Shown here: in pieces, positions 981 through 56,929 of the stretch | How positions within the stretch are numbered: the stretch's first letter is position 1 | Layout: each line of letters opens with the position of its first letter | Source of the DNA: Rhynchopus sp. YZ270_cl-10 | Lineage: Eukaryota | Assembly (NCBI GenBank): GCA_964035575.1 | Contig: OZ037838.1 | Coordinates: 992,001 to 1,056,000 of the forward strand | DNA: 64,000 bases | Reading direction: 5' to 3' | Notes under the pieces: generated by a model | Seen by the model: the letters and a program-made list of their open reading frames with translations, nothing else | Database searches by the model: none | What the model was told of the DNA's origin: nothing | Made by a program: the position numbers and the translations under genes

Positions 981-2105
981 ATGATGGATGTGACCTTTGT
1001 GCTGGAAGAGTCAGGCGTGACTGCGACAGTGGAGGTGCCGTGCGAGGCGGACGTTGCAGCGGCAAAGGAGGTTGCGTGCACGGCGCTTGCTGTCTCGCCT
1101 GCGTCTGTCGAGATGCGCATCGGCACGCAGGTGCTGGAGGGGACGTGTCGTCTGCAGGACACTGCGTTTCGTGCAGGGATGCAGGTTGTGCTTGCCTGTC
1201 CTCGCTTTGCCGACATCAAGTGTCCTGCTGAGCACAGTGAGATTACACAATCCTTCTCGCTGTCGCGTTGTGGAACGATCTGCGCTTTTGTGGACTGGAC
1301 TGGGCATGTTGGCGGCTTCGACACAGAAACCTTCGACACTGTCTTCTCATTCAAAGTGGATGCTAATGTGATGTGCGCGCCTGCCATCTCACGGTGCAAG
1401 ACACACTGCTACCTGGCGTGCGGGAATCACTTACGCAAGGTTGCGCTTCCGGGTGGGGAGGTGCTCCGCAAAGTCGACCCCTCCTCCGCAGTGTCCTCCT
1501 GTGGCAATGTTGTCGTCTCCGGGAGCATAGACGGCGTCTCTGTGTATGACGAAGACCTGACGTTGCTCCGCTCTCTCTCGCACGAAGGGTGTAAGACTGT
1601 GGCAGTATCGGACTGTGGTGGGTGGGTGATCACCTCCTCCGAAGGGGAAGAGGCACGTCTGTGGGATGTGAACACAGGAGTTGCTGTGGCATGTGTGCCG
1701 GTGGGGTGGTGGTGTGCAGTGGCGCTTTCACGGTCTGCCTCCGTCTTTGCTGCGGTGGGGGAGGACGACACCATGCGCCTCTATGATTGGAGTGGTGCGG
1801 CTCTTCGCAGTGTTGATGTGGATGGGGAAGTCGAGCGCATTCAGTTCACACCATGTGGGAAGTACCTTGTGGTCAAGGTGGCTGTTACCAGAGATGACGA
1901 CGAAGGTAACACACTTCACCACACACAACTGCACCAGTATGATGTGGCGACCATGTCCCGTGTACATGTGATCCCGCAAGCCAGCGGTGGGTCCTTTGCG
2001 ATATCACCGTGTTCCCGTGTGGTTGTGTTCGGGTGTGAGAACGAAAGCAGCGATCCAACAAGCGGCATTGTAACACGGCATCTGTACCCACACAACAGTG
2101 AGTGA
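981..2105 (+). CDS. Ubl + 7-bladed WD40-like beta-propeller protein, copy 1 (374 aa)
   Basis: Starts at the family-conserved ATG (MMDVTFVLEESGVTATVEVP...). N-terminus has a beta-grasp/Ubl pattern, followed by WD-like repeats (GVSVYDEDL, ARLWDVNTG, LYDWSG, QFTPCGKYL). Intronless. Confidence 0.85.
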   Translation: MMDVTFVLEESGVTATVEVPCEADVAAAKEVACTALAVSPASVEMRIGTQVLEGTCRLQDTAFRAGMQVVLACPRFADIKCPAEHSEITQSFSLSRCGTICAFVDWTGHVGGFDTETFDTVFSFKVDANVMCAPAISRCKTHCYLACGNHLRKVALPGGEVLRKVDPSSAVSSCGNVVVSGSIDGVSVYDEDLTLLRSLSHEGCKTVAVSDCGGWVITSSEGEEARLWDVNTGVAVACVPVGWWCAVALSRSASVFAAVGEDDTMRLYDWSGAALRSVDVDGEVERIQFTPCGKYLVVKVAVTRDDDEGNTLHHTQLHQYDVATMSRVHVIPQASGGSFAISPCSRVVVFGCENESSDPTSGIVTRHLYPHNSE

Positions 2106-2743
2106 TGTTCCGCGAGGGGTGGGAGGGTGGTGACTGTATTCTGACAGAAGGGGACAGTGCAAGTGTCTGCAGAGGGTATACCACCAACTGCATAGGCCAC
2201 ACCGTGAATCTAGCTCAAGCGGGACTGCTAACTCCACTTGGGAAGTTTGTGCCCATCACGCAGGCCCAGCTACGTTGTCTTGTCTCCCATTACCCTCCTT
2301 TTTTTTTTTCTTTTTTGTCTTTTTCTCCGTAGTCTTTTCTCCATTATTACTCTAGTAGTCTACAATCTAGTAAAAGATAGTGCCGTAATGTCCACTCCCC
2401 CCGCCCTGCAAAAATACAGCACCACCAACACCACATCCCCTATGATATTGTCTTCCCCCTAACATTTGATTTGGAGCTCAGATATGAGGTGCTTCAGGTC
2501 TGTTCGCGTTGTTCTGCTTTATTATTACTGTGCAATAAGCGCAGTCTTTGCTGTGGCAGACTGTTCGAAAGATCAACGTGTATCCATGGCATGCTTGGAA
2601 GCAGGTCATTAAACGTGTGCACACTGTGTTGTGGTGTCTAGTGTCTATTCTAAGAGTGTGCGTACGTCCACACAGCATCCATGCAAACAAGACAACCCAC
2701 ACCTCATCTCCCCACAGGGGTAGAGCAAGAAGTAAACAAAACA

Positions 2744-3892
2744 ATGATGGATGTGACCTTTGTGCTGGAAGAGTCAGGCGTGACTGCGACAGTGGAGGTG
2801 CCGTGCGAGGCGGACGTTGCAGCGGCAAAGGAGGTTGCGTGCACGGCGCTTGCTGTCTCGCCTGCGTCTGTCGAGATGCGCATCGGCACGCAGGTGCTGG
2901 AGGGGACGTGCCGTCTGCAGGACACTGCGTTTGGTGCAGGGGTGCAGGTTGTGCTTGCCCGCCGCTTTGCTGATATCAAGTGTCCTGCTGAGTACAGTTT
3001 TGAGGGGGCTGTGCCACACGTGTCGCTGTCGCGTTGTGGCACGCTCTGCCTCTATAGCGATAGTAAGCACATTCATGGCTTCGACACAGAAACCTTCGAA
3101 ACTGCCTTCGCTTTTGATATGGTCAACGACTGTTTCCTGTACGGTCCGCCTGTCATATCGAGGTGCAAGACACGCCTCTACATGCCGTGTGGGGAAGACT
3201 TTCGCAATGTAGATGACATACGCGAGGTTGCGCTTCCAAATGGGGAGGTGCTCCGCAAAGTCGACGGCACTTCGATGTCACTGTATGCGTGTGGCAGTGT
3301 TGTCGTCTCATGGTGTGAAGACGGCGTCTCTGTGTATGACGAAGACCTGACGTTGCTCCGCTCTCTCTCACATGAAGGGTGTAAGACTGTGGCAGTGTCG
3401 GACTGTGGTGGGTGGGTGCTCACCTCCTCCTTCAGTGAGAAGAATGCACGTCTGTGGGATGTGAACACAGGTGAAGCTGTTGCATGTGTGCCTGTGGATG
3501 GGTCGCGGTCTTTTGTGGCGCTTTCAAGGTCTGCCTCTGTCTTTGCTGTGGGGCTCTATGTGGACGGGGCACAGAGAATGCAGCTCTACGACTGGAGTGG
3601 TGCAGCTTTTCAGTACACCACTACCTCTGGAAATGTCCTTGACGTGCAATTCACCCCGTGTGGGAAATACTTTGTGGTACATAAGTTTACTGACAATGGA
3701 GAACTACATGCAGAGCTGCGACAGTATGATGTGGCGACCATGTCCTGTGTACTTGCGATCCCGGACGTCAACGGTCTGTCATTTGCGATATCACCGTGTT
3801 CACGTGTGGTTGTGTTTGTATCACGCGAACGTGCCCGCGTTCTGACAAAACATCTGTACCCCCACAACGAGCTCGTACAGGACACTGCGTAA
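2744..3892 (+). CDS. Ubl + beta-propeller protein, copy 2 (382 aa)
   Basis: Same architecture and near-identical 5' Ubl-coding block; intact ORF. Confidence 0.85.
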   Translation: MMDVTFVLEESGVTATVEVPCEADVAAAKEVACTALAVSPASVEMRIGTQVLEGTCRLQDTAFGAGVQVVLARRFADIKCPAEYSFEGAVPHVSLSRCGTLCLYSDSKHIHGFDTETFETAFAFDMVNDCFLYGPPVISRCKTRLYMPCGEDFRNVDDIREVALPNGEVLRKVDGTSMSLYACGSVVVSWCEDGVSVYDEDLTLLRSLSHEGCKTVAVSDCGGWVLTSSFSEKNARLWDVNTGEAVACVPVDGSRSFVALSRSASVFAVGLYVDGAQRMQLYDWSGAAFQYTTTSGNVLDVQFTPCGKYFVVHKFTDNGELHAELRQYDVATMSCVLAIPDVNGLSFAISPCSRVVVFVSRERARVLTKHLYPHNELVQDTA

Positions 3893-4844
3893 CTGGTGTC
3901 GTCAACAGAAGCCTGCGTCTTGCCACCACACACCTATCCAGTGATGGCAGATCTGCACCCACGAGCAAGACACCGCAGACCACGTTGTCGCAGCCGAACA
4001 CCACATCGCCTCCCGCCAACGACATCTCTTTACAACAAAAAATATCTGCGTCACATCGCTGCGTCGATGTGATGCTCGATGGGTTTGTACATTCTCCAGA
4101 CGATACTGCCCATGCATTGCGTAGCTCTGCATCGCACTGTTGGGGCCACGAGGACACACCAGGGAAGGTTCTATGCGTGCTTCGTATTTTAAGACACTGC
4201 AGGGAGCGGGGTGTGGTGGTGGATCCGCCCCAGATACTGCAGGACATATTCAAGGGCCTGATATCGAGCAGCGCAGCACACCCGAAGCTCTGCCAACTTC
4301 TCATGCGCATGGGTGCGGCAGTCACCCTCGATGTCATTCTCTGTGCACACGACGTGCATTTATCGTTTCTTCAGTCCTGCGACATCGCTCCACACATTCT
4401 CCTTACAGGCCCCAGCAGGGGTCTTGCTGGATGGGCGAAACCTTAGACGTTGTGCGAAGCCTTCGTGACTCGTGGTGCAAACGTGTTGACCCCGATGGTG
4501 ACGAAGATGCGCAGTGGTACAGAACGATGTCGCATGTTGCGTTCAGTGGTCGCTGTGCTGATGAACGTATCGTGAAACGCATCTTCGACCTTGCGGTGCA
4601 GCTCAACGCACGACGGTGTCGTGCGCTTCTGTCTGACCATGCACAGCACAGCCCCTCCCTCTGTGATCGGTGCAAGCCGTGTGAACAGTGTCTTCCGTGG
4701 CAACTTTTAGATTCAGCAAAGTGTGTAAGTCACGATCACTTTCGCACGCTGTGCACAATGCCAACGCACGCTCTATCCTGCCCACACCTTGTTCAGTTGG
4801 CAGCATATGCGAGACACATATTGTTGTGTTCTGCAGCCTGGTAA
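3893..4844 (+). pseudogene. Possible frameshifted gene remnant of unknown function inside array 1
   Basis: Two overlapping + strand ORFs (3796-4446 and 4140-4844) read protein-like in succession, with an apparent frame change near 4415-4445. No family recognised. Confidence 0.25.
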
Positions 4845-5300
4845 CTTTGCCTTGGTGTCTGCCGGCTCCCTCTTGCTAACCTGAGCCGCAGGATAGAAAC
4901 GTTGTGTTCTTCATTGTGCCTTCTCTTGTTTCAAAGTGGATGTGTACCAGAAGACATGCATCTGCCAGTTTTTTTCCCTTCATTTTTAGCAATGTTGTTG
5001 TTGTTGTTGTGGTGGTAGCATTTCCTCTCCCCGGCAAGTTTTGTTTTTATTAGGACAAATTTGTGGTGGGAAATGATTGAGACTTTCTGTTTATTCCCCT
5101 GCCCCTTTATTGTGCACTCAACTCGTTTCTGTACAAGGGTTTCTTCCTTTTTGACATTTCTGGGCAGTTTGGATATTTTCAAATTGCTTGCTTTTGTCAG
5201 AGTTTGTTGAAACACATATTTAACCCACCAACCTTCTTATTTGTCGTTGCGAAGTGACACCACCAACCATCACATCAAACACAACAGACCCCTTAACAAT

Positions 5301-6461
5301 ATGATGGATGTGACCTTTGTGCTGGAAGAGTCAGGCGTGACTGCGACAGTGGAGGTGCCGTGCGAGGCGGACGTTGCAGCGGCAAAGGAGGTTGCGTGCA
5401 CGGCGCTTGCTGTCTCGCCTGCGTCTGTCGAGATGCGCATCGGCACGCAGGTGCTGGAGGGGACGTGCCGTCTGCAGGACACTGCGTTTGATGCAGGGGT
5501 GCAGGTTGTGCTTGCCTGTCCTCGCTTTGCCGACATCAAGTGTCCTGCTGAGTATAGTCTGCAGAAGGAAGCAAAAAACATGTCACTATCGCGTTGTGGA
5601 ACGCTCTGTGTCTATGGTGACTGGAGTGGGCATGTTGGCGGCTTTGACACAGAAACCTTCGACACTGTCTTCTCGTTCGAAATGTGGACTAAAGTGTACG
5701 ATCGGCCTGCCATCTCGCAGTGCAAGACACGCTGCTACCTGCCGTGTGGGGGTCTCATTCTCGAAGTTGCGCTTCCGGGTGGGGAGGTGGTCCGCAAAGT
5801 GGACGACACCTCAGAGTCAGTGTTCGCGTGTGGCAATGTTGTTGTCTCAAAGAGTGGAAACGGCGTCTCTGTGTATGACGAAGACCTGACGTTGCTCCGC
5901 TCTCTCTCGCACGAAGGGTGCACGGACACGGCAGTGTCGGACTGTGGTGGGTGGGTGATGACCTCCTCCAACAAGGAGAAGAAGGCACGTCTGTGGGATG
6001 TGAACACAGGTGTTGCTGTGGCGTGTGTGCCTGTATCAACGTCTGCGGGGTTGTGGTCTAGAGTAACTCTTTCACGGTCTGCCTCTGTCTTTGCTGTGGA
6101 GGGGGAGGGAAACACCGTGCAGCTCTACGATTGGAGTGGTGCGGCTCTTCGCAGTGTTGATGTGGGTGGGTACGTCGGGGGCATGCAGTTCACCCCGTGT
6201 GGGAAGTACCTTGTGGTCAAGGTGGATGTCGAGGAATGCACAGATGGTACAGATGATGACGAAGAATATCATGATAACGATGTACACCTGCATCAGTACG
6301 ATGTGGCGACCATGTCCCGTGTGCGTGTGATCCGGCAAGCCCATTCTGGGTCCTTTGCGATATCACCGTGTTCACGTGTGGTTGTGTTCGGGTGTGAGAA
6401 CGAAATCGACAGAACAGGCGGCATTGCAACAAGGCATCTGTACCCACACAACAGTGAGTGA
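5301..6461 (+). CDS. Ubl + beta-propeller protein, copy 3 (386 aa)
   Basis: Same architecture; long acidic loop EECTDGTDDDEEYHDND. Confidence 0.85.
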   Translation: MMDVTFVLEESGVTATVEVPCEADVAAAKEVACTALAVSPASVEMRIGTQVLEGTCRLQDTAFDAGVQVVLACPRFADIKCPAEYSLQKEAKNMSLSRCGTLCVYGDWSGHVGGFDTETFDTVFSFEMWTKVYDRPAISQCKTRCYLPCGGLILEVALPGGEVVRKVDDTSESVFACGNVVVSKSGNGVSVYDEDLTLLRSLSHEGCTDTAVSDCGGWVMTSSNKEKKARLWDVNTGVAVACVPVSTSAGLWSRVTLSRSASVFAVEGEGNTVQLYDWSGAALRSVDVGGYVGGMQFTPCGKYLVVKVDVEECTDGTDDDEEYHDNDVHLHQYDVATMSRVRVIRQAHSGSFAISPCSRVVVFGCENEIDRTGGIATRHLYPHNSE

Positions 6462-7063
6462 TGTTTCGCGAGGGGTGGGAGGGTGGTGACTGTATTCTGA
6501 CAGAAGGGGACAGTGCAAGTGTCTGCAGAGGGTATACCATCAACTGCATAGGCCACACCGTGAATCTAGCTCAAGCGGGACTGCTAACTCCACTTGGGAA
6601 GTTTGTGCCCCACACAGGCCCAGCTACATTGTCTTGTCTCCCCGATTCTCAGTTCTCATTACCCTTTTTTTTATTGTCTTTCTTCTCCGTGATAGTGGTC
6701 TACAATCTAGTAAAAGATAGTGTCGTAATGTCCACCCCCCCCGCCCTGCAAAAATACAGCACCACCAACACCACATCCCCTATGATGTTGTCTTCCTCCT
6801 AACATTTGATTTGGAGCCCAGATATGAGGTGCTTCAGGTCTGTTCGCGTTGTTCTGCTTTATTATTACTGTGCAATAAGCGTAGTCTTTGCTGTGGCAGA
6901 CTGTTCGAAAGATCAACGTGTATCCATGGCATGCTTGGAAGCAGGTCATTAAACGTGTGCACACTATGTTGTGGTGTCTAGTGTCTATTCTAAGAATGTG
7001 CGTACGTCCACACAGCATCCACACTTCATCTCCTCAGAGGTAGAGCAAGAAGTAAACAAAACA

Positions 7064-8182
7064 ATGATGGATGTGACCTTTGTGCTGGAAGAGTCAGGCG
7101 TGACTGCGACAGTGGAGGTGCCGTGCGAGGCGGACGTTGCAGCGGCAAAGGAGGTTGCGTGCACGGCGCTTGCTGTCTCGCCTGCGTCTGTCGAGATGCG
7201 CATCGGCACGCAGGTGCTGGAGGGGACGTGCCGTCTGCAGGACACTGCGTTTGATTCAGGGGTGCAGGTTGTGCTTGCCTGCCCTCGCTTGGCCGACATC
7301 AAGTGTCCTGCTGAATACAGTGGGGATGCAGAATACTTTTCACTGTCGCGATGTGGAGCGCTCTGCATCCATGCTCAAGCCCACAGGGGTAGGCGTGTTG
7401 GCGGTTTCGACACAGAAACCTTCGACACTGTCTTCTCGTTCGAAGCCGCATTCGAAGTGTGCGATCGGCCTGCCATCTCGCAGTGCAAGACACGCTGCTA
7501 CCTGCCGTGTGAGGAAGGCCTTCTCGAGGTTGCGCTTCCGGGTGGGGAGGTGGTCCGCAAAGTCGACGACCCCTCGTACGAAGTGTTCGCGTGTGGCGGT
7601 GTTGTTCTCTCACACGACCCCTATGGCGTCTCTGTGTATGACGAAGACCTTGCATTGCTCCGCTCTCTCTCGCACAAAGGATGCAGGGGCATGGCAGTGT
7701 CGGACTGTGGTGGGTGGGTGATCACCTCTTCCGACAACGAGAACAACGCACGTCTGTGGGATGTGAACACAGGTGAAGCTGTGGCATGTGTGCCTGTGGA
7801 TGGGATGCACGTGGCGCTTTCACGATCTGCCTCTGTCTTTGCTGTGGTGGGGGAGGACGACACCGTGCAGCTCTATGATTGGAGTGGTGCGGCCCTTGGC
7901 AGTATTGATGTGGATGGGGTTGTCTGGGGCATGCAGTTCACCCTGTGTGGGAAGTACCTCGTGGTGAGGGTACAGTTTCCGGAATCTGATGATGACGAAC
8001 CTTTACTTGAGTACGATGTGGACCTGCACCAGTATGATGTGGCGACCATGTCCTGTGTGGATGTGATACCGCAAATTTGGGGTGGGTACTTTGCGATATC
8101 GCCGTGTTCACGTGTTGTTGTGGTTGTGCAACCAAATGGCGACATTGTGACGCGTCATCTGTACCCACACGACAGTGAGTGA
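7064..8182 (+). CDS. Ubl + beta-propeller protein, copy 4 (372 aa)
   Basis: Same architecture; intact ORF. Confidence 0.85.
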   Translation: MMDVTFVLEESGVTATVEVPCEADVAAAKEVACTALAVSPASVEMRIGTQVLEGTCRLQDTAFDSGVQVVLACPRLADIKCPAEYSGDAEYFSLSRCGALCIHAQAHRGRRVGGFDTETFDTVFSFEAAFEVCDRPAISQCKTRCYLPCEEGLLEVALPGGEVVRKVDDPSYEVFACGGVVLSHDPYGVSVYDEDLALLRSLSHKGCRGMAVSDCGGWVITSSDNENNARLWDVNTGEAVACVPVDGMHVALSRSASVFAVVGEDDTVQLYDWSGAALGSIDVDGVVWGMQFTLCGKYLVVRVQFPESDDDEPLLEYDVDLHQYDVATMSCVDVIPQIWGGYFAISPCSRVVVVVQPNGDIVTRHLYPHDSE

Positions 8183-8531
8183 TGTGTGACCAGGGGAGGA
8201 GAGGGAGGTGGTGATGAATATGACCCAGGGTACCAACAAAATAACCCAAGACCCTCAAAGCACCCCCAAGAAACTCCCCGTTTAGCTCTGTTGCTGTTTT
8301 CTCTTGTTTGCCTTCCACAGGTTGCCCACCTCACACGCTGCCCATGCGGCGGTCTCGTGGGTGACAGATCGCGATGCTTAGTGTCATTTTCCATTCGTCA
8401 CCTCTCACAACGAGAACCACCACAAACATGCAACACAGAACAACACCTCTCCCCACCCACCTCATCACTCCCTCCGTTTGTGGTGGAGCAAACGTGCTGA
8501 TTTGCACCTTCTCACGAAGCAACGCAACACA

Positions 8532-9641
8532 ATGGATGTGACCTTTGTGCTGGAAGAGTCAGGCGTGACTGCGACAGTGGAGGTGCCGTGCGAGGCGGAC
8601 GTTGCAGCGGCAAAGGAGGTTGCGTGCACGGCACTTGCTGTCTCGCCTGCGTCTGTCGAGATGCGCATCGGCACGCAGGTGCTGGAGGGGACGTGCCGTC
8701 TGCAGGACACTACGTTTGATTCAGGGGTGCAGGTTGTGCTTGCCCGCCCTCGCTTTGCCGACATCAAGTGTCCTGCTGAGTACAGTGTAGAGGCGCCAAC
8801 GGATGGGCAGGAGACCACTACGAAGCATTTATCCCTATCTCCTTGTGGAGCACTCTGCCTCTTTGCACAGAATGCAGGCTATATCACCGGCCTCGATACA
8901 GACACCTTCAGCCCTGCCTTCAAGTTCAAAGTAGACAATGGGGTGTATGGTCTACCTGCCATCTCACGGTGCAAGAGACGCTGCTACCTGGCGTGCAGGG
9001 AAGCCATGCACGAGGTTGCGCTTCCAGGTGGGGAGGTGCTCCGCAAAGTCGATGGCATCTCGAGAGCAGTGTTCGCGTGTGGCGGTGTTGTTGTCTCAAA
9101 GAGTGGAGACGGCGTCTCTGTGTATGACGAAGACCTGATGTTGCTCCACACACTCTCGCATAAGCGGTGCAGGAATGTGGCAGTATCGCACTGTGGTGGG
9201 TGGGTGATCACCTCCTCCTTAGGTGAAAAGAACGCACGTCTGTGGGATGTGAACACAGGTGAAGCTGTGGCATGTGTGCCGATCGAGTGGGAATGCCACG
9301 AAGTAGCGCTTTCACGGTCTGCTTCTGTCTTTGCTGTGGGGCAGAGGAACACCGTGCAGCTCTATGATTGGAGTGGTGCGGCTCTTCGCAGCATTGATGT
9401 GGATGGGCGTGTCTGTGGCATGCAGTTCACCCTGTGTGGGAAGTACCTTGTGGTCAATGTACTCAATGTGTTGAGCCTCACAAGTGGTTATGAGCTGTAC
9501 CAGTACGATGTGGCGACCCTTTCCTGTGTGCGTGTATTCACGGAAATGACAATGCACTCGTTTGTGATATCGCCCTGTTCGCGTATGGTTGTGTTTCCAT
9601 CCAAAAGCCGCATTGTGACACGCCACCTGTACCCAGAATAG
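8532..9641 (+). CDS. Ubl + beta-propeller protein, copy 5 (369 aa)
   Basis: Same architecture; single-Met start MDVTF. Confidence 0.85.
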   Translation: MDVTFVLEESGVTATVEVPCEADVAAAKEVACTALAVSPASVEMRIGTQVLEGTCRLQDTTFDSGVQVVLARPRFADIKCPAEYSVEAPTDGQETTTKHLSLSPCGALCLFAQNAGYITGLDTDTFSPAFKFKVDNGVYGLPAISRCKRRCYLACREAMHEVALPGGEVLRKVDGISRAVFACGGVVVSKSGDGVSVYDEDLMLLHTLSHKRCRNVAVSHCGGWVITSSLGEKNARLWDVNTGEAVACVPIEWECHEVALSRSASVFAVGQRNTVQLYDWSGAALRSIDVDGRVCGMQFTLCGKYLVVNVLNVLSLTSGYELYQYDVATLSCVRVFTEMTMHSFVISPCSRMVVFPSKSRIVTRHLYPE

Positions 9642-10478
9642 TTGGTGCCTGCGTGTGACGACTAGCTAGCCCTGCGCCACCAGAGTCGTCCACACCCAGG
9701 AGTCGTCACTGGCATGGATGACAGAGCATCGTGGATGGCGAGGGGCGTTCATTAGTCCACACGACTTTGACAATGGAAGTGCGCTCAATGCGGAGAGTGC
9801 ACGGGTAAGACGGAACGCCTGAGGTGTGTTTGGTAGTTCATGCTATTCAAATCAAGGCCGCAGTTACAAAGTTTAGCCACAAACTACGCCCCCCTGCCTA
9901 CTGTCAGATATTGCCAAGCCTGTGTTTATGGTGGTGTGGCGACTTTTTGTCTGAGATTCCAACTTTCGGAAAATAACGTCTGTGCGCCCCTACTTTACAT
10001 CCTCAGGTAAACCGTCATAGAATGTCAGGAGGCGTCACACTCGGTGTAGTTTCTCCCGATGCAATTTAACGTCCAGCCCAGGACGGGTATGGTATGAGTT
10101 GATGGAAGTGCGAAGCAGTGCGGATTTATAATGTGGGTTCCAAAGAGAAAAGCTGCCCACATGAGCCTAAGCGAAGCGTCTCGTGCATGGCTATACAAAC
10201 AGTTCTTTTGATACGGATGTAGGGGTCTTGGTACAGGGTTGTGTATTTCAAGTGACCTTATTTTTAATGGGTGGAGGGTGGAGCGCTTTCTAATGTTGAG
10301 ACTTTGTCATCCTTTTTGCATTCCCATCATATTCACGCACGCGGTAGTTTTTAGGGTTGACGTACTTATGAGATTAAAGTGACCCCACAACCCATTTTTT
10401 ACCAGTTTCAACACCGAACAACTCAAACCCCACCACCCACCTCATCACTACCCGTTAGCAGTGGGGCAAAAAAGAAGA

Positions 10479-11603
10479 ATGATGGATGTGACCTTTGTGC
10501 TGGAAGAGTCAGGCGTGACTGCGACAGTGGAGGTGCCGTGCGAGGCGGACGTTGCAGCGGCAAAGGAGGTTGCGTGCGCGGCGCTTGCTGTCTCGCCTGC
10601 GTCTGTCGAGATGCGCATCGGCACGCAGGTGCTGGAGGGGACGTGCCGTCTGCAGGACACTGCGTTTGGTGCAGGGTTGCAGGTTGTGCTTGCCCGCCCT
10701 CGTTTTGCCGACATCAAGTGTCCTGGTGGGTACACTGCAAAGTCGCAAGCGACAACGTTCGCGCTGTCGCGTTGTGGAACGCTCTGCGTACATAGTTGCG
10801 AGACTGGTCATATTGGCGGCTTCGACACAGAAACCTTCGACACTGTCTTCTCGTTCATAGTGGACAATAAAGTATCCGGTGCGCCTGCCATCTCGCAGTG
10901 CAAGACACGCTGCTACCTGCCGTGTGGGGATCACCTTCTCGAGGTTGCGCTTCCGGGTGGGGAGGTGGTCCGCAAAGTCAAGGGCATCTCAGACGCAGTG
11001 TTCTCCTCTGGCGGTGTTATTGTTTCCCAAGGCATAAACCAAGGCGAAGAAGATGGCGTCTCTGTGTATGACGAAGACCTGACGTTGCTCCGCTCTCTCT
11101 CGCACAAGCGGTGCAGTGGGGTGGCAGTATCGGACTGTGGTGGGTGGGTGATCACCTCCTCCTTCGAGCGGAACGTACGTCTGTGGGATGTGAACACAGG
11201 TGAAGCTGTTGCATGTGTGCCATTGGAGGGGTACGGGAGCTTACGAGTGGCACTTTCGTAGTGTGCCTCTGTATTTGCTGTGGCGAGCTGTGGCACCGTG
11301 CACCGCGTGCACCTCTATGATTGGAGTGGTGCGGCTCTTCGCAGTGTTGATATGGATAAGGCTGTAGCGGGAATGCAGTTCACCCCGTGTGGGAAGTACC
11401 TTGTGGTGGGGGTGGTAATTTTTGATTATGTTAGGTTCGAAACGCTGCACCAGTTTGATGTGTCGACCATGTCCTGTGTGCATGTGATATCGTATAGCGC
11501 AGATGCGCCCTTTGCGATATCGCCGTGTTCACACGTTGTTGTGACTATGTCATATCCTGATTTCATTGCGACGAGACATCTGTACCCACACAACAGTGAG
11601 TGA
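10479..11603 (+). pseudogene. Ubl + beta-propeller copy 6 with one in-frame TAG (11259-11261)
   Basis: TAG replaces the Arg codon (usually CGG) of ALSRSAS. The reading frame continues unbroken to the family-typical end TRHLYPHNSE* at 11603. Confidence 0.8.
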
Positions 11604-11781
11604 TGTTTGGCCAAGGGAGGGGAGGGAAAGTAGTGATGCATTTGACCCTTTTCTCTTGTTTGCCTGCCACAGGTCGCCGGGTGTCAGGTCGCCCACCTCA
11701 CACGTGGGTTCGTTGTGGGTCGGAAACACAAACCTGCCACCGAGCAGTTGTGTCCCTTCCCCCTTCACACCACACGTACGG

Positions 11782-12074
11782 GCAAGCTGAGGTTTCTTTT
11801 CACATCTCCTGTGTATTTGCAGGGTATTTTCAAATTGCTTGTTTTGTCAGAGTTTGTTGAAACACGCATTTAACCCACCAACCTTCTTATTTGTTTTACC
11901 TTTTTCTACCTGTTTTTGAAGAAAAAGAAAATCGACCTTCCCCTTTCGCACCACAGTGCGAGCAAGCTGAGGTTTCTTTTCACATCTCCTGTGTATTTGC
12001 AGGGTATTTTCAAATTGCTTGTTTTGTCAGAGTTTGTTGAAACACGCATTTAACCCACCAACCTTCTTATTTGT
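11782..12074 (+). repeat. 113-bp direct duplication of the upstream module of copy 7 (11782-11894 and 11962-12074)
   Basis: gcaagctgaggtttcttttcacatctcc...aaccttcttatttgt is repeated identically with a 180-bp period. Confidence 0.85.
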
Positions 12075-12130
12075 CGTTGCGAAGTGACACCACCAACCAT
12101 CACATCAAACACAACAGACCCCTTAACAAT

Positions 12131-13234
12131 ATGATGGATGTGACCTTTGTGCTGGAAGAGTCAGGCGTGACTGCGACAGTGGAGGTGCCGTGCGAGGCGG
12201 ACGTTGCAGCGGCAAAGGAGGTTGCGTGCACGGCGCTTGCTGTCTCGCCTGCGTCTGTCGAGATGCGCATCGGCACGCAGGTGCTGGAGGGGACGTGCCG
12301 TCTGCAGGACACTGCGTTTGATGCAGGGGTGCAGGTTGTGCTTGCCCGCCGCTTTGCCGACATCAAGTGTCCTGCTGAGCACATCCAGCGCAAGTTGCAC
12401 AACTTCTCGCTGTCTCGTTGTGGAACGCTTTGTCTCTCTTTCCACAAGACTGGCGCTGCACGTATTGCCTGCGTAGGCTTTGACACAGAAACCTTCGACA
12501 CTGCCTTCACGTTTGACATAGAATGTGCTGGCTTCGGCTCGGGACCTGCCATCTCACGGTGCAAGACACGCTGCTACCTGGCGTGCGGCAAGAGGGAAGG
12601 CCTTCTTGAGGTTGCGCTTCCAGGTGGGGAGGTGCTCCGCAAAGTCGACGGCATCTCGAAGTCAGTGTTCGCGTGTGGCAATGTTGTTGTCTCGAAGGGC
12701 AAAGACGGCGTCTCTGTGTTTGATGAAGACCTGACGTTGCTCCGCTCTCTCTCGCAGGAAGCGTGCCTGGATGCGGCAGTGTCGGACTGTGGTGGGTGGG
12801 TGATCACCTCCTCTGAAATCGATAGCAACGCACGTCTGTGGGATGTGAACACAGGTGAAGCTGTGGCATGTGTGCCTGCGGGTTCGTGGTGTGCAGTGGC
12901 GCTTTCACGGTCTGCCTCTGTCTTTGCAGCGGGGGCAAACAACACCGTGCAGCTCTATGATTGGAGTGGTGAAGCTCTTCGCAGTGTTGCTGTAGGGGGC
13001 TTCGGGGAGATGCAGTTCACACCGTGTGGGAAGTACCTTGTGATACAAAGACATTGCAAAATATCTGTTGATGACTGGCACTTCGAGCTACACCAGTATG
13101 ATGTGACTAACATGTCCTGTGTGCGTGTGATACCAGAACCTTGCAATGCGTTTACGATATCACCGTGTTCACGTGTGGTTATGTTTGGGTCAGGAGAAAG
13201 TGCCCTTAGGACGAGGCATCTCTACCCCTACTGA
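12131..13234 (+). CDS. Ubl + beta-propeller protein, copy 7 (367 aa)
   Basis: Same architecture; last copy of array 1. Confidence 0.85.
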   Translation: MMDVTFVLEESGVTATVEVPCEADVAAAKEVACTALAVSPASVEMRIGTQVLEGTCRLQDTAFDAGVQVVLARRFADIKCPAEHIQRKLHNFSLSRCGTLCLSFHKTGAARIACVGFDTETFDTAFTFDIECAGFGSGPAISRCKTRCYLACGKREGLLEVALPGGEVLRKVDGISKSVFACGNVVVSKGKDGVSVFDEDLTLLRSLSQEACLDAAVSDCGGWVITSSEIDSNARLWDVNTGEAVACVPAGSWCAVALSRSASVFAAGANNTVQLYDWSGEALRSVAVGGFGEMQFTPCGKYLVIQRHCKISVDDWHFELHQYDVTNMSCVRVIPEPCNAFTISPCSRVVMFGSGESALRTRHLYPY

Positions 13235-24562: not shown

Positions 24563-25573
24563 GAGGAGAAAAAGGGGGTGTAGCACTGTATGTTATTCTG
24601 TTAAAAAGGATGGGTGTTGTGTGGTCGGTGTTGTGTCTGGCTATTTTTTTTTTTTTTTTGGTAAGGGTACTCACACTTTTTCTTTTGTTTCTTGTCCTTG
24701 GGTTTCCCAAAAATCCGAGCGGGCGGGCGGGAAAAAAAAAGTGAAGCAAAAAAAAAAAAAAGTGGAGGAAAAAAAAAGTGAAGGGGGAAAAAAAACCTGT
24801 GCGGTATTTTTCCGCCCAAGAGGGCGTTTTGTTGCAGTTCCGAGTCAATCCCGGCTTGTGGTGGGGGATATTCGGAAAAATGGACAAAATTTCAGTGACT
24901 TAAATTTTTGCAAAATATGAACCCATACTCGTAAACAAGGGTCATTTTCAGTCTAATTCTGGGAATTTTCCGGAAAATTCGGAAAATTCCGACATTTGGA
25001 AGCAATTTTTTCCCCTGAAAAAAGTGGGTGTTCAGCCCCAAAACGTACCACGGGTGGCATTTCCGGAACCCGTCCGCGCTGTGGTGGCCAGGGTGGGGTC
25101 ACTTTACCGAAATGGCCAAATTCTTGGTTTTGGTCAAAATCCATGTAGGGAAATCCCAAATCCAGATTTTCTCTCCCTGATCCTCGGCGTCAAAATACGA
25201 AAGTGCCCGAAAACACCGGCATTTGCATTTCCGGAATCCGTCCGTTGTGTGATGGGGTCAATTTTCCAAAATGGACAAGTTTTTGGTTTTGGTCAAAACC
25301 CGTCAGTGTAAGGTAAAGGGGAGCCGAGTGTTCGCCTGTAGAACTGATAGAAAAAAGGCAGCGCCGCAGGCGCACTTTACCAACTTTTTTTACTCGTGCC
25401 ATTTTCTTTTGATTGCACGAGCCGATTGCTCTCCGCCGTGGGGCTCAGATTGGAGCGTGCAGTTCTCTACCTTGTGGGGATGTTGCAGTAGTCAGCAACA
25501 CAGCGCCGCAGGCGCACGGTACGCTACTTTTTCCTTTTTTGAAAACTTGCACGGTGGCCCATTCCTACCCTTA

Positions 25574-25716
25574 GGGTAGGGTCCGCGGGGGGTACCCCAT
25601 GGGGTACCCCCCAGACTACCCCATGGGGTACCCCATGGGGTACCCCCCAAATCTGAGGGGTACCCCATGGGGTACCCCCCAGACTACCCCCGGGGGTACC
25701 CCATGGGGTACCCCCG
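25574..25716. repeat. GGGGTACCCC palindrome array (left)
   Basis: Repeated ggggtaccccatggggtacccc units; 25574-25597 is an exact reverse complement of 28510-28533. Confidence 0.9.
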
Positions 25717-25720
25717 GTAC

Positions 25721-26039
25721 AGGTACACAGGTACACAGGTACACAGGTACACAGGTACACAGGTACACAGGTACACAGGTACACAGGTACACAGGTACAC
25801 AGGTACACAGGTACACAGGTACACAGGTACACAGGTACACAGGTACACAGGTACACAGGTACACAGGTACACAGGTACACAGGTACACAGGTACACAGGT
25901 ACACAGGTACACAGGTACACAGGTACACAGGTACACAGGTACACAGGTACACAGGTACACAGGTACACAGGTACACAGGTACACAGGTACACAGGTACAC
26001 AGGTACACAGGTACACAGGTACACAGGTACACAGGTACA
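25721..26039. repeat. Perfect 8-bp microsatellite (AGGTACAC) x ~40
   Basis: 39 perfect units plus a 7/8 unit, read directly from the sequence. Confidence 0.97.
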
Positions 26040-28310
26040 GCCAGAGTGCCAGAGTCAAGGGTCCGCGCGGGGTCCGCCCCCCGATGACATAACGAAGTAT
26101 CGCTTGAAAATACCGTTCAATATATGTTGCTTGGTGTGCATGAAGAAGGACACACAAGGTATATCAAACGATAAATCAATCAGATAAACGTTACATCATC
26201 GGAAAATTGTTGGCACCGCCCCCCTGTCTTCGTATTTATTACCCCGTCGACAGGCCAAACAGCGTTGGGCTCAGAAGAAGCAGTGCAAGACAGTCACTGG
26301 GGATCAACATGAGAACCAACTCCCAACAACACAGGCTACCGAAGTAGCAGGTGGGGTGTTGCGGGTGTTTGGGGTGAGAAAATCGATTTTGGTAAGTTGC
26401 AGCAGAACATTCTTAAGTTCGCACTAGTCGAGAGAGGCTTACCCGCTGCAGTGAAGCAGTGCACCCATTTAAGGGTGGAGAAGCGTGACACGCACATACA
26501 AGTATGTACGTTACTTCAACAAAGGCTGAATTCTGGTAATTCTAAGGGATGTGAATTCAGCCACCACGCAGGTAGTGTTTTAAGGTTCCTCGCTTTGTGC
26601 TACACAGCGGACTCATGACACAAAGGAGTTGCCCCCGCTCTCTTTCGCGCAAACTTAAGAAAATTCTGGAGTCACTACAACCTGGCGTGCGGGTACAGAT
26701 GCATTGCTTTGTTCTTTCCTCAAAGTCATATCTGATCTCTCGGGTCTGTACTAAAGTCAGTGTTTAGATAAGCATCCACTTGACTCGTTCTAACAACCGT
26801 TGAAATCTAGAACAAAACAATACACTGCCCCTTCTCACACCAAGCCGCCATGCTTCAAGAGCATGCCCTGGGCAAAAATTACTGTGACAAAAATTGGTTT
26901 TCTGGGGGAACGCGATATTTTCTTGTGCCTACTGTAGTCCTCCGCAAGAGCAGAGGACAGACTTTCCGGATCCCGAAGTCGAATTTTTTGCACTAGCTAT
27001 GCTCCCTGGGTTAAATGGCTATAGCAGTGACTGACTAAGAGTTTCATAATAATTGGGGCGGTCTATGGGGTGGGTTAATGGAAAAATTGGTTTAAAAACC
27101 CAACTTTTGCGGTCCCCACCCGGTTTGCAATAATTGCACCAGCTCTTCCATCGGCACTGTTTCGCTGTCACGATGAAGGGTCGTCGGTTCGGGTACCTGT
27201 TGAGAGAAATTGAGTGCAAAAGTAGAGACTACAACAAAAAAAATCAAACAAACAAACAAGAAGCCGCTCCGTACCTCTTCCATGCAAAAAAGAAAGTAAA
27301 AGACTGCCCTTCCTCAGTCCGGAAGTAGCACCTCATCCGGTTCCCTGACGTAAAAGAGTTGTAGAGGTTACGAGATGCCATGATAAAAAAGTAAAAGTGA
27401 CAATTTTGACAATAAAAATATGCTTCGATTTACATCCGAGCGGGACAAAGGCGAAAAGGGGGAGCGGGGGGGTGTAAAAACCGGGGCTTAAAAACATACC
27501 TTGCAGCACTCGCTCGGCCTACTCTCCAGGTACGAGAACATCACTGCACGAACAATCCCACTGATACTGATACCTGCATTCTATTTGTTGCCACATGGTA
27601 AAAATGACCAAAACTTCGACCAATTTTTTTTTTCTTCACAATTTGCTCATTGAGGCTTTGTATTTTTTGGGCCATTTATGACCCACCACGCCCGATTTTG
27701 GCGAGAAGAAAAAAAAATTTGGGTCAAAAATCGACGCGTCTTTGGTAAAATCACGACTTTTCGGGCGCGAAACCACGTTTTAGACCCCCACAGATGCTCA
27801 AAAGTGCCAAATTTTGCTTTTAATGGCCTCAAAGGATCACGGGAGCACCCCTCGTAATTACGAGGGCTCCCCACGCCGTGACGTCGTCATTGCGCGCGTA
27901 ATTTCCCACGTATGCGGGCGTGGTTGGTCATAAAATGGCCCAAAAACCCCAAACAAAACCTCAGATTGACCAAATCGAGGAAAAATTGTCAAGTCGAAAT
28001 TTCAGCCAAAATACGGTCATTTTGGTTATACCCCGCGGTGTATGCAGTAGCTAGAACACGTACACAGCTAAGTTCCTAAGCGATTTCCTTCACATTTTTC
28101 ATGAAAAATTGGTCAAAAATCGACTTGTCTTTGGTAAAAAAACCACGAAAAATCGGCTGCGCAAAACCACGTTTTAGACCCCCACAGATGCTCAAAAGTG
28201 CCAATTTTTGCTTTTAATGGCCTCAAATCGTCGAAATTAGGCCTATATAGGGCAAAAAAAAAATTTTTGAGAGTCCCTTTCCCTGGGAGGCAATAGCCAC
28301 CGGGTGTGCA

Positions 28311-28603
28311 GGGGGTACCCCGGGGGGTACCCCCCAGGGTCCGCGGGGGTACCCCATGGGGTACCCCCGCGGACCCTGAGGGGTACCCCATGGGGTACCC
28401 CCGCGGACCCTGGGGGGTACCCCTCGGGGTACCCCAAACCCCCCAAAGGGTACCCCGCGCGGACCCTACCCAACCCTGTGGGGTACCCCCTGGGGTAGCC
28501 CACGCGAGGGGGTACCCCCCGCGGACCCTACCCTGTGTGGTACCCTACCCTGCGGGGTACCCCTTTTGGGGGTACCCCCGGGGGTACCCCCAAAAGGGTC
28601 CGC
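28311..28603. repeat. GGGGTACCCC palindrome array (right)
   Basis: Many GGTACC-centred palindromes with gggtccgcgg/ccgcggaccc arms. Confidence 0.9.
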
Positions 28604-44540: not shown

Positions 44541-45791
44541 ATGGAGGTATTCTATGAGGGCAAAAGCTGTGGACGGACCGGCTGTGTGGAGGTCCCCCTT
44601 GACGCCACCCTTGGCGACTTAACTGCGCTTATCGCGGACGACGCGGGGATGCCTCGGCACGGTGTAGACTACTTCCTGGGCGACACACTTCTCAAGAACA
44701 ACACCACCCTGCTGAAGGACACACGCATCGCACAGCAGGATTGCGTCTACTTCGGTAGGGCACACTACCCTGAGAAGAACACTCCGATTGTGCGGAGCCA
44801 GAAGCAGGCGTGTCTGGATGTCGTGATAAGCCCCGATGGCGCGAAGGTTCTGGTCACGACGTCTGGAGATAAGGCAGTCGTGTACGACATACACACGGAG
44901 GGGATGCTTCGTGAATATGACACAGGATGCTCTGAGTTTAACGGCTTCGTGCTCTCACACTTTGGTGCGGACAATGCCACAGTGTTCTTTATGGACGACT
45001 CTACGATGCAGTTGCATGCTGCCAACTATAAGACAGATGCTACTTCACGGGTCTTTCCTTTGGAGGGCAAGGTGCGTGGGATAGACGATGTGGGGGTTGA
45101 TCAGGTTGCGGTCATTGCTACCGACGAGGAGGCGCTGACCAGCACGCTTGCCATCTGGGACGTCACGACGTTCACTGTGCTGCGTGTCATCACCACCTCC
45201 CCGCTCAATCAGCATGAAGACTTCAGCTTCCTCCGCGTCTCGGTGGCCCCCTCTGCTGAATACTGCATCATGGGTGGGCAGTCGGGATTACGCCGATGCG
45301 ACCTGACGAGCAATGATGTTGTCGTCTTTGGTGAGTTGAGCAACGAAGAGGACAGCGAAGAGGACAGCTCCGAGGTGTGTCCGGTGTATCTCCACGTCAA
45401 GGCGCTTGAGGGGGAACGCTGTTTGACGACCTTGAACGGTATCATACAGCTCTGGGACGTAAAGTCGCGGACAAAGATTCGATCACTAACGGACGGCTTC
45501 AGCACCCCTCACACAGACGACGACACAGTGGACAGCAGTGAGGTGGAGATCCTGTCCTGTTCCGTTGCAGGGGATATGTGTGTCGCCACGCAGCTCGGCA
45601 CGTCCCGTATCATCATATGGGATCTCGAGACAGGGCAGGTCAAGAAAAGGCTTGAGAGCGCAATTTCCGCCTTAGTGGCGGTGTGCGTCGGCCCCTGCGG
45701 CACGTTCTTCATCTCAGGAGGGTCTTCAAGTGAAGAGGAAGACAGCGAAGACATCCCAGACTCATTCTGTGCGTTGGAAATGTGGAGATGA
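44541..45791 (+). CDS. Divergent Ubl + WD40 beta-propeller protein (416 aa)
   Basis: N-terminus MEVFYEGKSCGRTGCVEVPLDATLGDLTALIADDAG...YFLGDTLL...LKDTRI aligns by eye with the family Ubl. WD repeats follow (VISPDG, LAIWDV, IQLWDV, IIIWDLETG, VGPCG). Confidence 0.8.
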   Translation: MEVFYEGKSCGRTGCVEVPLDATLGDLTALIADDAGMPRHGVDYFLGDTLLKNNTTLLKDTRIAQQDCVYFGRAHYPEKNTPIVRSQKQACLDVVISPDGAKVLVTTSGDKAVVYDIHTEGMLREYDTGCSEFNGFVLSHFGADNATVFFMDDSTMQLHAANYKTDATSRVFPLEGKVRGIDDVGVDQVAVIATDEEALTSTLAIWDVTTFTVLRVITTSPLNQHEDFSFLRVSVAPSAEYCIMGGQSGLRRCDLTSNDVVVFGELSNEEDSEEDSSEVCPVYLHVKALEGERCLTTLNGIIQLWDVKSRTKIRSLTDGFSTPHTDDDTVDSSEVEILSCSVAGDMCVATQLGTSRIIIWDLETGQVKKRLESAISALVAVCVGPCGTFFISGGSSSEEEDSEDIPDSFCALEMWR

Positions 45792-47853: not shown

Positions 47854-48948
47854 ATGATGGATGTGACCTTTGTGCTGGAAGAGTCAGGCGTGACTGCGAC
47901 AGTGGAGGTGCCGTGCGAGGCGGACGTTGCAGCGGCAAAGGAGGTTGCGTGCACGGCGCTTGCTGTCTCGCCTGCGTCTGTCGAGATGCGCATCGGCACG
48001 CAGGTGCTGGAGGGGACGTGCCGTCTGCAGGACACTGCGTTTGATTCAGGGGTGCAGGTTGTGCTTGCCTGTCCTCGCTTTGCCGACATCAAGTGTCCTG
48101 CTGAGTACACTGCAACGCATGTGGGACCCTTGTCGCTGTCGCGTTGTGGAACGCTCTGCGTCTATTGTAGCCTCGATGGGCGTGTTGGTGGCTTCGACAC
48201 AGAAACCTTCAACACTTGCTGCTCTTTTGAAGTGGACGGTGACGTGCGCGGTCGGCCTGCCATCTCGCAGTGCAAGACACGCTGCTACCTGGCGTGTGGG
48301 GGTGATGTACGCATGGTTGCGCTTCCGGGTGGGGAGGTGCTTCGCAAAGTCTACGGCACCTCAGACTCAGTGTTCGCGTGTGGCAATGTTGTTGTCTCAA
48401 AGAGTGGAGACGGCGTCTCTGTGTATGACGAAGACCTGACGTTGCTTCGCACTCTCTCGCACGAAGGGTGCTGGGACATGGCTGTGTCGGACTGTGGTGG
48501 GTGGGTGATCACCTCCTCCGAAAACGAGAGCAACGCACGTCTGTGGGATGTGAACACAGGTGAAGCTGTGGCATGTGTGCCTACGAGTGGGTGGTGTATG
48601 GCGCTTTCACGGTCTGCCTCTGTCTTTGCTGTGGGGGTGGAAAACACGGTGCGCCTCTTTGATTGGAGTGGTGCGGCTCTTCGCAGTGTTGATATGTATG
48701 GGGATGGAAGGGGTATGCAGTTCACCCCGTGTGGGAAGTACCTTGTGGTCAGGGAAGTCGGGGATGATGATGGTGCTTACTATGCACAACTGCACCAGTT
48801 TGATGTGGCGACCATGTCCTGTGTGCGTGTGATACCGCAAAACTCAGGTGTGTCCTTTGCGATATCGCCGTGTTCACGTGTGGTTGTGGTTTTGCAATCA
48901 GATGGCGTCATTGCGACAAAGCATCTGTACCCACACAACAGTGAGTGA
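47854..48948 (+). CDS. Ubl + beta-propeller protein, copy 8 (364 aa)
   Basis: Same architecture; first copy of array 2. Confidence 0.85.
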   Translation: MMDVTFVLEESGVTATVEVPCEADVAAAKEVACTALAVSPASVEMRIGTQVLEGTCRLQDTAFDSGVQVVLACPRFADIKCPAEYTATHVGPLSLSRCGTLCVYCSLDGRVGGFDTETFNTCCSFEVDGDVRGRPAISQCKTRCYLACGGDVRMVALPGGEVLRKVYGTSDSVFACGNVVVSKSGDGVSVYDEDLTLLRTLSHEGCWDMAVSDCGGWVITSSENESNARLWDVNTGEAVACVPTSGWCMALSRSASVFAVGVENTVRLFDWSGAALRSVDMYGDGRGMQFTPCGKYLVVREVGDDDGAYYAQLHQFDVATMSCVRVIPQNSGVSFAISPCSRVVVVLQSDGVIATKHLYPHNSE

Positions 48949-49303
48949 TATGTGACCAGGGGTGGGGAGAGGAGGGGAGGCTGGTGATGAATATAACTCA
49001 GGGTACCAGCAAGAAAACCCAAGACCCTCAAAACACCCCCAAGAAACTCCCCTTTCAGCCCTGTTGCTGCTTTTCTCTTTGCCTCACAGGTCGCCCACCT
49101 CACACGTTGCCCATGCGATGCTCTCGTGTGCGTGACAGATCGCGATGCCGAGTATCATTTTCCTTTCGTCACCTCTCACAACGAGAACCACCACAAACAT
49201 GCAACACAGAACAACACCTCTCCCCCACCCACCTCATCACTCCCTCCGTTTGTGGTGGAGCAAACGTGCTGATTTGCACCTTCTCACGAAGCAACGCAAA
49301 ACA

Positions 49304-52715: not shown

Positions 52716-53299
52716 GGTCTGAGGTGCGTCCCTCTTTCTTGCCTAATAGCTTCTTCATTTGCGCAAAGGCGAAATGTCAAAGATGAAACATCATCAAGGA
52801 GCTTTCTTCCCCTAAACACCCTGGTTTTGTCGTGCGATTAATGTTAAGTTTCTATTTTGCTTACTTTTCCATGAGGATCCCATCCGTTAAACGGAAACAC
52901 AACCCGCTGACGAGTGGTTGTGGACCTTCCCCCTTCACACCACAGTAAGGGCAGGCCATGAGGTTTCTTTTCTTCAATGCGCTGTGCTTGTGTGCACAGC
53001 AGTGTACATACCCTTGCAAGCTTTCTTAGAAGATGACCACCAGCCTTTGTGCAATGTCCCGCTCTGAGGTAGTGCACAACTGCTGTTCATACACGACACA
53101 CAGGACTTTCCACCCCACACCAAGATGTTTACCTTCGGTTGCTGTCTGACGTCTCATGAGGACCAGAGTAAAGTGGACAGAGATACACTCCTCTCCATTG
53201 ATCGAGACAACATGATCAGCAGGGGCAGTCGGCACAAAGTCAGCGCAACCACCATGTCATCCACCATCTACACCTTCCACGAGGAGCCTCTTGGCACGG

Positions 53300-56602: not shown

Positions 56603-56929
56603 TGATGAATATAACTCAGGGTACCAGCAAGAAAACCAAAGACCCTCAAAACACCCCCAAGAAACCCCCCTTTCAGCCCTGTTGCTGCTTTTCTCTTCTT
56701 TGCCTGCCACAGGTCGCCCACCTCACACACCTCACTCCTGTGTGTTTGCCAGGGTATCTTCAAACTTTCCTTACTCTTGCAGTGTGTCCTTACTGGACGG
56801 TTTGGGTATCTTCAAATTGCTTGCTTTGTCAGAGTTTGTTGAAACACGTATTTAACCCACCAACCTTCTTATTTGTCGTTGCGAAGTGACAACAACCATC
56901 ACATCAAACACAACAGACCCTTTAACAAT

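Follow-up and report, generated by a model that had tools for sequence, protein, structure and literature searches.

Near-identical ubiquitin-like blocks and one variable predicted propeller face in a large tandem gene family of Rhynchopus sp.

The window analysed here (64,000 nt of Rhynchopus sp. YZ270_cl-10, contig OZ037838.1, positions 992,001 to 1,056,000) carries 15 copies of a gene whose family numbers well over a hundred members; in this family, the part coding for a ubiquitin-like domain (Ubl) is nearly letter-identical and one predicted face of the following WD40 propeller is highly variable. Silent divergence rises along the gene as a gradient, variability is restricted to the predicted top face, the propellers are mosaic and the 5' flanks are uncoupled from them. 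The near-identity of the Ubl part is probably the product of frequent short-tract gene conversion between copies, those conversions that erase the variable top loops being rejected by selection for different binding surfaces; we infer this mechanism from sequence patterns and not from a directly observed conversion event.

Gene arrays, protein architecture and family size

The window contains the motif ATGGATGTGACC 15 times, always on the + strand, against 0.30 occurrences expected by chance; with the exception of copy 6, it stands each time at the start of an intronless frame of 362–399 codons. The copies, 14 of which are intact, form two arrays 35.7 kb apart, copies 1–7 at nt 984–13234 and copies 8–15 at nt 47857–63987. 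In copy 1 (+ strand), the homogenised block corresponds to Ubl codons 1–62 (nt 984–1169), the equivalent 186 nt opening all 15 copies according to motif, alignment and fold; it is followed by a transition zone of intermediate silent divergence, covering codons 63–83 with the last Ubl strand and the linker (nt 1170–1232), and by a seven-bladed WD40 propeller with hypervariable top-face loops (nt 1233–2105), as placed by the structure model made on copy 8. The first array continues on the + strand with copies 2 (nt 2747–3892, 381 aa), 3 (nt 5304–6461, 385 aa), 4 (nt 7067–8182, 371 aa), 5 (nt 8532–9641, 369 aa) and 6 (nt 10482–11603), the latter with an in-frame stop at nt 11259–11261 (259 aa) and propeller sequence onward to nt 11603, and ends with copy 7 (nt 12134–13234, 366 aa). 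The second array, also on the + strand, opens with copy 8 (nt 47857–48948, 363 aa), used as reference for folding and contig comparison, and proceeds with copies 9 (nt 49307–50425, 372 aa), 10 (nt 51627–52715, 362 aa), 11 (nt 55403–56602, 399 aa), 12 (nt 56933–58024, 363 aa), 13 (nt 59295–60401, 368 aa), 14 (nt 60914–62020, 368 aa) and 15 (nt 62851–63987, 378 aa). Despite its stop codon, copy 6 has a Ubl block just one base off the majority, which is what a recent lesion or the continued conversion of a pseudogene would give.

Other features were observed around the arrays. A distant gene with a Ubl-like start and a WD40 propeller (nt 44541–45791, + strand), ~23–26% identical in short stretches, lies outside the homogenised family. 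An apparent frame-broken coding relic with no Pfam match is found 3' of copy 2 (nt 3870–4850), the end of copy 2 shows a 13-nt match to the Ubl block, and, in the second array, a 406-codon frame with no Pfam match (nt 53291–54511) lies between copy 10 and copy 11. The gene-poor stretch between the gene arrays contains a perfect 8-nt tandem array of ~330 bases beside palindromic repeats GGGGTACCCC (nt 25570–26040), and a second palindromic cluster 2.3 kb from the first (nt 28310–28440). Dispersed intergenic elements of two kinds (56 and 73 nt), 73–96% alike, were found at nt 190–235, 18314, 18598, 30108, 37730 and 40189, and at nt 13834, 30619, 34184 and 40788, the copy at nt 190 having been recognised by eye, and are possibly SINE-like or regulatory. 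The window also encodes an enoyl-CoA hydratase with 73% identity to that of Diplonema papillatum and 76–89% to four transcriptome proteins. The host is thus likely a diplonemid; gene clusters on one strand fit this group, as described in the accessible part of PMC10161547.

In the model of copy 8, the C-terminal part is a seven-bladed WD40 propeller of 28 strands with pLDDT mostly >90, having G-beta, WDR5 and PkwA as matches (E ~1e-16); in the window copies the blades are unlike one another. The N-terminal 72 residues folded as ubiquitin once diverged relatives were in the alignment (pLDDT 85; TM ~0.79 and rmsd 1.3–1.7 Å against ubiquitin structures), the first fold having given a Ubl pLDDT of 30–50 because the alignment had no variation there. 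The family's own Ubl was not recognised by Pfam in the window copies, and Pfam ubiquitin was matched, below its cut-off, by 3 of 10 diverged relatives. A C-terminal Gly-Gly is absent in 15/15 copies, where the Ubl ends VVLARR/ACPR and continues into the propeller, and a conjugatable ubiquitin-like modifier was rejected on this ground. The Leu8-Ile44-Val70 hydrophobic patch is the functional surface of proteasome-shuttle Ubls of the Rad23/Dsk2 type. In the gap-free alignment with ubiquitin (offset 1), Glu9 takes the place of Leu8 and Arg45 that of Ile44, and extending the alignment by one residue puts Ala71 at Val70, so that a proteasome-shuttle Ubl was also rejected. The missing Gly-Gly and the Glu9/Arg45 replacements thus point to an integral Ubl devoid of the usual hydrophobic patch. 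Since the proteins begin directly with the Ubl, they are taken as intracellular. In the Pfam scan neither F-box nor BTB was found in the window ORFs and diverged relatives, nor NACHT in the window ORFs.

Homology search with copy 8 retrieved 419 clusters at E <= 0.001, a figure that counts protein clusters and not genes genome-wide. The best 120 of these 419 are 69–100% identical over the full length; 85 map on the window's own 2.71-Mb contig (5 of them within the window itself) and the remaining 35 on six further contigs, which we take to be part of the same genome. Residues 1–62 are identical in 72 of the best 120 proteins, with 4 out of register in trimming. A ladder of more diverged Ubl-propeller proteins was recovered by profile search, and the search with the diverged alignment gave 109 matches, of which 3 are family-like and the rest generic WD40s. 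Among the matches listed in the copy 8 and diverged-alignment searches none was a named relative of the family, no related locus or array was found in the scanned JGI metagenome contigs, and the Atlas matches were all <=0.85. In the family member P0123, the propeller runs into the out-of-frame Ubl block of the following copy; this is apparently a deletion joint between neighbours and may be a sign of ongoing rearrangement.

The homogenised block and the silent gradient

The original prediction held that the Ubl-coding block is nearly identical in all 15 copies, silent sites included, and this was borne out by the alignment, each copy being 0–3 bases off the majority over the first 186 nt. Codons 1–62 show 12 differences from the majority at 10 sites, with none in 7 of the 15 copies; of the 105 pairs, 21 show no difference, and no pair differs by more than 5 bases. 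The changes it had named, D23N in copies 9, 11 and 12, M44I in copy 10 and silent changes in copies 1, 5, 9 and 13, are correct, and A61T (copy 5), T33A (copy 6) and A36T with T48M (copy 11) have to be added. The identity spans both arrays, as had been claimed, block distance being 0.0081 within and 0.0084 between them. When dS was compared along the codon alignment, as the prediction had proposed, it amounted to 0.011 in the block (dN 0.007; codons 1–62, 15 copies) versus 0.20 at the amino-acid-invariant propeller codons, an ~18-fold contrast. Likewise, segregating fourfold sites at invariant codons are 3/37 in the block versus 24/48 in propeller strands and bottom loops (Fisher p = 4e-5).

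The borders of the block were less sharp than first thought. An abrupt divergence after the block had been described; amino-acid divergence is indeed sharp at codons 84–86, but codons 63–83 are already intermediate, with dS 0.10 and a 3-nt deletion in 4/15 copies. Similarly, the frozen block covers most of the Ubl domain, but is not equivalent to it, the predicted Ubl fold reaching approximately residue 71. Residue 23 (nt 47923 in copy 8), inside the block, can be D, K, N, T, G or A among the best 120 proteins, and residues 63–64 (nt 48043–48048 in copy 8), immediately behind it, are D/G/R/E and A/S. Variation at these residues, which align to ubiquitin Thr22 and Gln62-Lys63, is almost exclusively amino-acid-changing, and together they may constitute a small patch under selection on the Ubl.

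To locate the variation on the propeller, entropy was calculated on 105 aligned proteins, namely 14 window copies and 91 of the best 120 matches, leaving out window duplicates and most proteins with long N-terminal extensions, and loop classes were assigned from the strands of the copy 8 model. In the d-a loops, seven in number, entropy averages 2.13 bits, and in the equally numerous b-c loops 2.42 (lowest 1.09), as against 0.31 bits for the a-b loops and 0.24 for the c-d loops (highest 0.62). Section 10 of PMC1805685 assigns the d-a and b-c loops to the binding face at the top. Hypervariability is thus found in 14/14 top-face loops and 0/13 bottom loops of the predicted propeller, and 44 of the 53 most variable positions fall within or adjoin the top loops.

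Silent divergence follows this arrangement as a gradient and not as a switch between constant and variable parts. The fourfold-site difference is 0.010 in the Ubl block, 0.068 in codons 63–83, 0.149 in bottom loops, 0.181 in strands and 0.368 in top loops; at conserved codons, dS is 0.40 at 1 codon from a variable column, 0.06 at 8–19 codons and 0.010 at >=20 codons. As successive top loops are only 11–20 codons apart, the Ubl is the sole long stretch away from them. The earlier argument that protein-level selection alone is insufficient to freeze the block was supported by the diverged relatives, which lose Ubl identity as fast as propeller-framework identity: in 12 of them, Ubl/framework identity goes from 0.92/0.89 down to 0.27/0.40 (2 of the 14 relatives lacked the Ubl).

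Exchange between copies and alternative explanations

Propeller segments are mosaic, nearest neighbours switching between segments and segment distances being weakly correlated (−0.27 to 0.54), and the same discordance between segments was found in the 105 aligned proteins. In recombination tests, which exclude copy 6, four-gamete incompatibility is 0.35 under 10 nt and 0.40–0.52 beyond (PHI-like p = 0.007). An identical run beyond the longest shuffled run was observed in 1/91 pairs (copies 13 and 15, 46 polymorphic sites), indicating that long recent tracts are rare. The 5' flanks fall in approximately seven classes, 88–98% alike within class, and knowing the class of a flank does not help to predict the propeller behind it (p = 0.31 and 0.68). 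Divergence was compared in nine pairs with homologous flanks, picked by hand. It is 3–7% in the flank, a value from local alignment and biased low, 0–2% in the block, 4–10% in the bottom loops and 34–50% in the top loops; the flanks thus differ more than the Ubl block, implying that the copies are older than their Ubl. Copies 4–5 and 8–9 align as one 2.4-kb unit, and copies 4 and 8 differ at 49/73 top-loop residues and 0/186 block bases.

These data modify the idea that the block serves as the homology anchor for exchanges swapping the downstream part. The uncoupling of 5' flank and propeller agrees with exchange in the block, but within the propeller, too, linkage is lost over distances above ~10 nt; short framework stretches would therefore be anchors as well, the variable part being shuffled piecewise and not swapped whole. 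Gene-wide conversion, which the Ubl alone fails to resist, should take the place of the single-anchor model, the Ubl being one exchange anchor among several. In such a process, conversion would act along the whole gene at one rate; it would succeed in the Ubl because this is the only stretch of more than ~20 codons without a variable loop, and would succeed partially in the 11–20-codon frameworks between loops, where loops would be reshuffled into new combinations. Purifying selection on the protein would keep the homology needed for conversion, and the effect would consequently not reach beyond the start codon into the flanks, which have drifted apart to form several classes. Such a pattern is given by conversion opposed by selection in the accessible parts of PMC3924837 and PMC3966226.

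A toy model followed 30 copies within a single clonal lineage, with a single conversion rate, a homology requirement for initiation, purifying selection everywhere except in the loops, and no indels. With 60-nt tracts and 97% loop rejection it gave 0.011/0.041/0.15/0.35, and without loop rejection it was flat (0.011–0.016). The model was hand-tuned, 2–3 of 8 settings falling near the data, and its earlier versions had failed, either being too short (6 settings) or, without purifying selection, letting the frameworks escape (6 settings); it thus speaks for sufficiency only. Since diversity in the model scales approximately as copy number x mutation / conversion rate, 400 copies at 0.011 would require overwriting of each base ~30,000–40,000 times more often than its mutation. 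The model would also want a clonal or low-diversity population, which fits the identity of the unique flank in contigs of two sequencing runs (over 516 nt in X2 and 397 nt in X4).

The competing explanations of the frozen block concern the data themselves, the nucleotide sequence and the history of the family. That the 186-nt identity is an assembly or polishing collapse is hardly credible and already largely refuted. The original prediction had called for long reads; independent Logan contigs of four runs from three studies (X1 and X2, a possible source of the assembly; X4 and X7, other studies), compared with copy 8 at 80% likeness, were used instead. They agree with the block, making a consensus artefact unlikely. 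Alternative letters at >=1% are listed at 11/186 block positions, mostly at a few percent, the largest being the codon-23 G>A (4–27% in three runs), whereas variant letters would be numerous after a collapse; moreover, private block differences are kept in 8 of the 15 window copies. On the side of collapse, the contig tables under-report and drop variants, as indicated by the third base for Lys23, absent from the listing (K23 in 19/120 proteins). Together with the ~18-fold dS contrast, the agreement of these contigs supports the predicted concerted evolution. Very unlikely, too, is a freezing of the 186 nt by nucleotide-level selection, through RNA structure, a small-RNA target or a trans-splicing or translation signal. 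The identity does begin exactly at the start codon, third positions included, as such a signal would have it; however, folding is unexceptional (z = −1.31, 22/200 shuffles folding as well), no Rfam match is present in the window, and fourfold-site GC is ordinary (28/41 in the block vs 60/93 in the framework, p = 0.70), these same window copies giving no sign of GC-biased conversion either. Moreover, amino-acid and silent changes are similarly rare in the block (omega 0.42–0.48 by likelihood, 0.4–0.7 across estimates, as obtained on recombining sequences), a better fit to recent common ancestry, and the silent gradient extends into the propeller.

Just as improbable is a recent expansion from one gene, the dS of 0.011 being its age, followed by a targeted mutator acting on the propeller in the manner of diversity-generating retroelements or somatic hypermutation. 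The Ubl variants are star-like, with singletons at 9/10 variable sites and for all 4 silent variants, and the base change is G>A or C>T at 9/10 variable sites; a top-loop omega near 1 would also fit randomisation. Against it, variation at variable codons affects A, C, G and T to a similar extent (0.37–0.50), with no adenine bias, for which reason a diversity-generating retroelement target was rejected; 24/47 silent framework variants are common to 2–7 copies, the non-coding flanks of the most alike pairs exceed the Ubl block in divergence, and a scan of the window's 16 larger ORFs gave no reverse transcriptase. Somewhat less remote, although still unlikely, is that conversion homogenises the Ubl and the top loops are merely unconstrained, indels and drift having made them too unlike to convert, with no diversifying selection or recognition role. 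Indels are indeed located in the top loops, ordinary loop residues (D, E, N, G) abound at the hypervariable positions, with a mild enrichment of Y, H and W, and top-loop omega, estimated like all omega values on recombining sequences, is 0.92 by counting and 1.15 (MG) or 1.29 (GY) by likelihood; twice the log-likelihood gain over omega = 1 is 1.9 (MG) and 5.6 (GY), significant under one model only, so that the excess of amino-acid changes is modest. On the contrary, the bottom loops of the same propeller have omega 0.26–0.30 and are almost invariant while all top loops vary, nearly all window copies have remained intact, the toy model lacking rejection (and indels) is flat, and raised dS together with dN is predicted by conversion plus selection in the accessible part of PMC3966226. 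Conversion opposed by selection on the top loops is thus preferred.

The contigs offered further observations. Summed contig depth over the block is ~thousandfold or more that over the flank in X2 and X4, which is not a copy number and serves as a hint only; X4 has almost no contig cover directly upstream of copy 8, a hole that proves nothing. Runs X6 and X7, with small shares, carry no information about habitat. Contigs joining the block to unrelated sequence at codon 49–53 or codon 70 (nt 48002, 48015 and 48066) were also detected, suggesting truncated copies or the same Ubl placed before other sequences.

Comparable systems and possible function

The evolutionary mechanism is already known from protocadherins, fish NLR-B30.2 and HET-E; the very large family is apparently undescribed. 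In clustered protocadherins (accessible part of PMC3966226), like here, one domain is homogenised across tandem paralogues and the rest is diverse, a pattern read as conversion selected against elsewhere; the proteins are unrelated, and the genes described here are intronless, intracellular and of a protist, with far more copies on several contigs and one variable propeller face. The zebrafish NLR-B30.2 family, as far as the accessible text of PMC4852459 goes, resembles the present one in its ~400 genes, mostly on one chromosome arm, in a constant-domain within-group dS of a few percent, in conversion that acts differently on two domains and in a surface-variable recognition domain. Here, however, NACHT, LRR and B30.2 are missing, recognition-domain dS is high (0.2–0.8) and not low, and the protein has two domains in ~370 aa. 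Podospora HET-D/HET-E (HNWD) share the variation of d-a and b-c top-face loops, kept by concerted evolution and reshuffling, but exchange near-identical 42-residue repeats among ~10 NLR genes (PMC1805685, accessible part), whereas here blades are unlike, whole genes exchange and a Ubl is N-terminal; membership in the HNWD fungal NLRs was rejected, NACHT and near-identical WD repeats being absent. Nematode F-box and MATH-BTB adaptors, reported second-hand in the accessible part of PMC4334554, combine a constant ubiquitin-system handle with a substrate-binding domain that evolves fast; for this large family, of the birth-and-death type, a role in recognising foreign proteins has been proposed. 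The family described here differs in the absence of F-box and BTB among its Pfam matches, and its link to a ligase or the proteasome would be hypothetical.

The order of domains recalls a further group. The first Atlas match, a lead only, is an NLE-WD40 cluster at 0.85. Rsa4/Notchless and Ytm1/WDR12 are conserved single-copy genes. We take the conserved MIDAS-binding glutamate of the NLE domain to lie in the loop before the last Ubl strand, a loop which reads D/G/R/E-A/S-G in the present family and varies among copies. This varying loop, and the absence of the NLE family PF08154 among the matches listed for the window ORFs and diverged relatives, led us to reject membership in the Rsa4/Ytm1 (NLE-WD40) group. 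The same UBL + WD40 order is nevertheless found in these ribosome assembly factors, whose UBL is a handle for the AAA ATPase Rea1/Midasin (PMC6920918, accessible part). By analogy with the docking of the Ytm1/Rsa4 UBL on Rea1, the constant Ubl of the present family would most likely dock on one common partner and, judging from its surface residues, this shared partner would probably not be one of the usual Ile44-patch ubiquitin receptors.

A constant handle and one variable face in a large family have, by comparison with the systems above, the build of a recognition repertoire, and we infer that the family may act as an intracellular recognition repertoire in which each propeller would bind a different target. 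Our guess is that invading bacteria or viruses as targets are the likeliest driver. It is conceivable, though we hold it doubtful, that a free-living protist has here an antibody-like intracellular immune repertoire, with several hundred propeller 'paratopes' on one Ubl effector handle, conversion-reshuffled loops giving new specificities within clonal lineages, and bound pathogen proteins passed to a single destruction or signalling machine. In the openly searchable literature, with subscription papers outside the search, no paper on this family was listed under diplonemid WD40 or ubiquitin-like expansions, WD40 repertoires or protist Ubl-propeller expansions. WD40, ubiquitin and gene conversion are not mentioned in the main texts of PMC10161547 and 10.64898/2026.01.29.702485, whose supplementary gene-family tables may bear on the family, and the accessible part of PMC8061765 holds nothing further on it.

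The recognition of intracellular bacteria and viruses by free-living protists is largely open, and the family has the anatomy of a recognition repertoire, with its constant handle, one hypervariable face and constant reshuffling; none was found described in this lineage by our literature search. It also names a testable target, that is one shared Ubl partner plus copy-specific ligands. Finally, the family sets conversion against selection in an unusually clean natural setting: four levels of silent divergence are present within a 1.1-kb gene and allow the estimation of both conversion rate and tract length.
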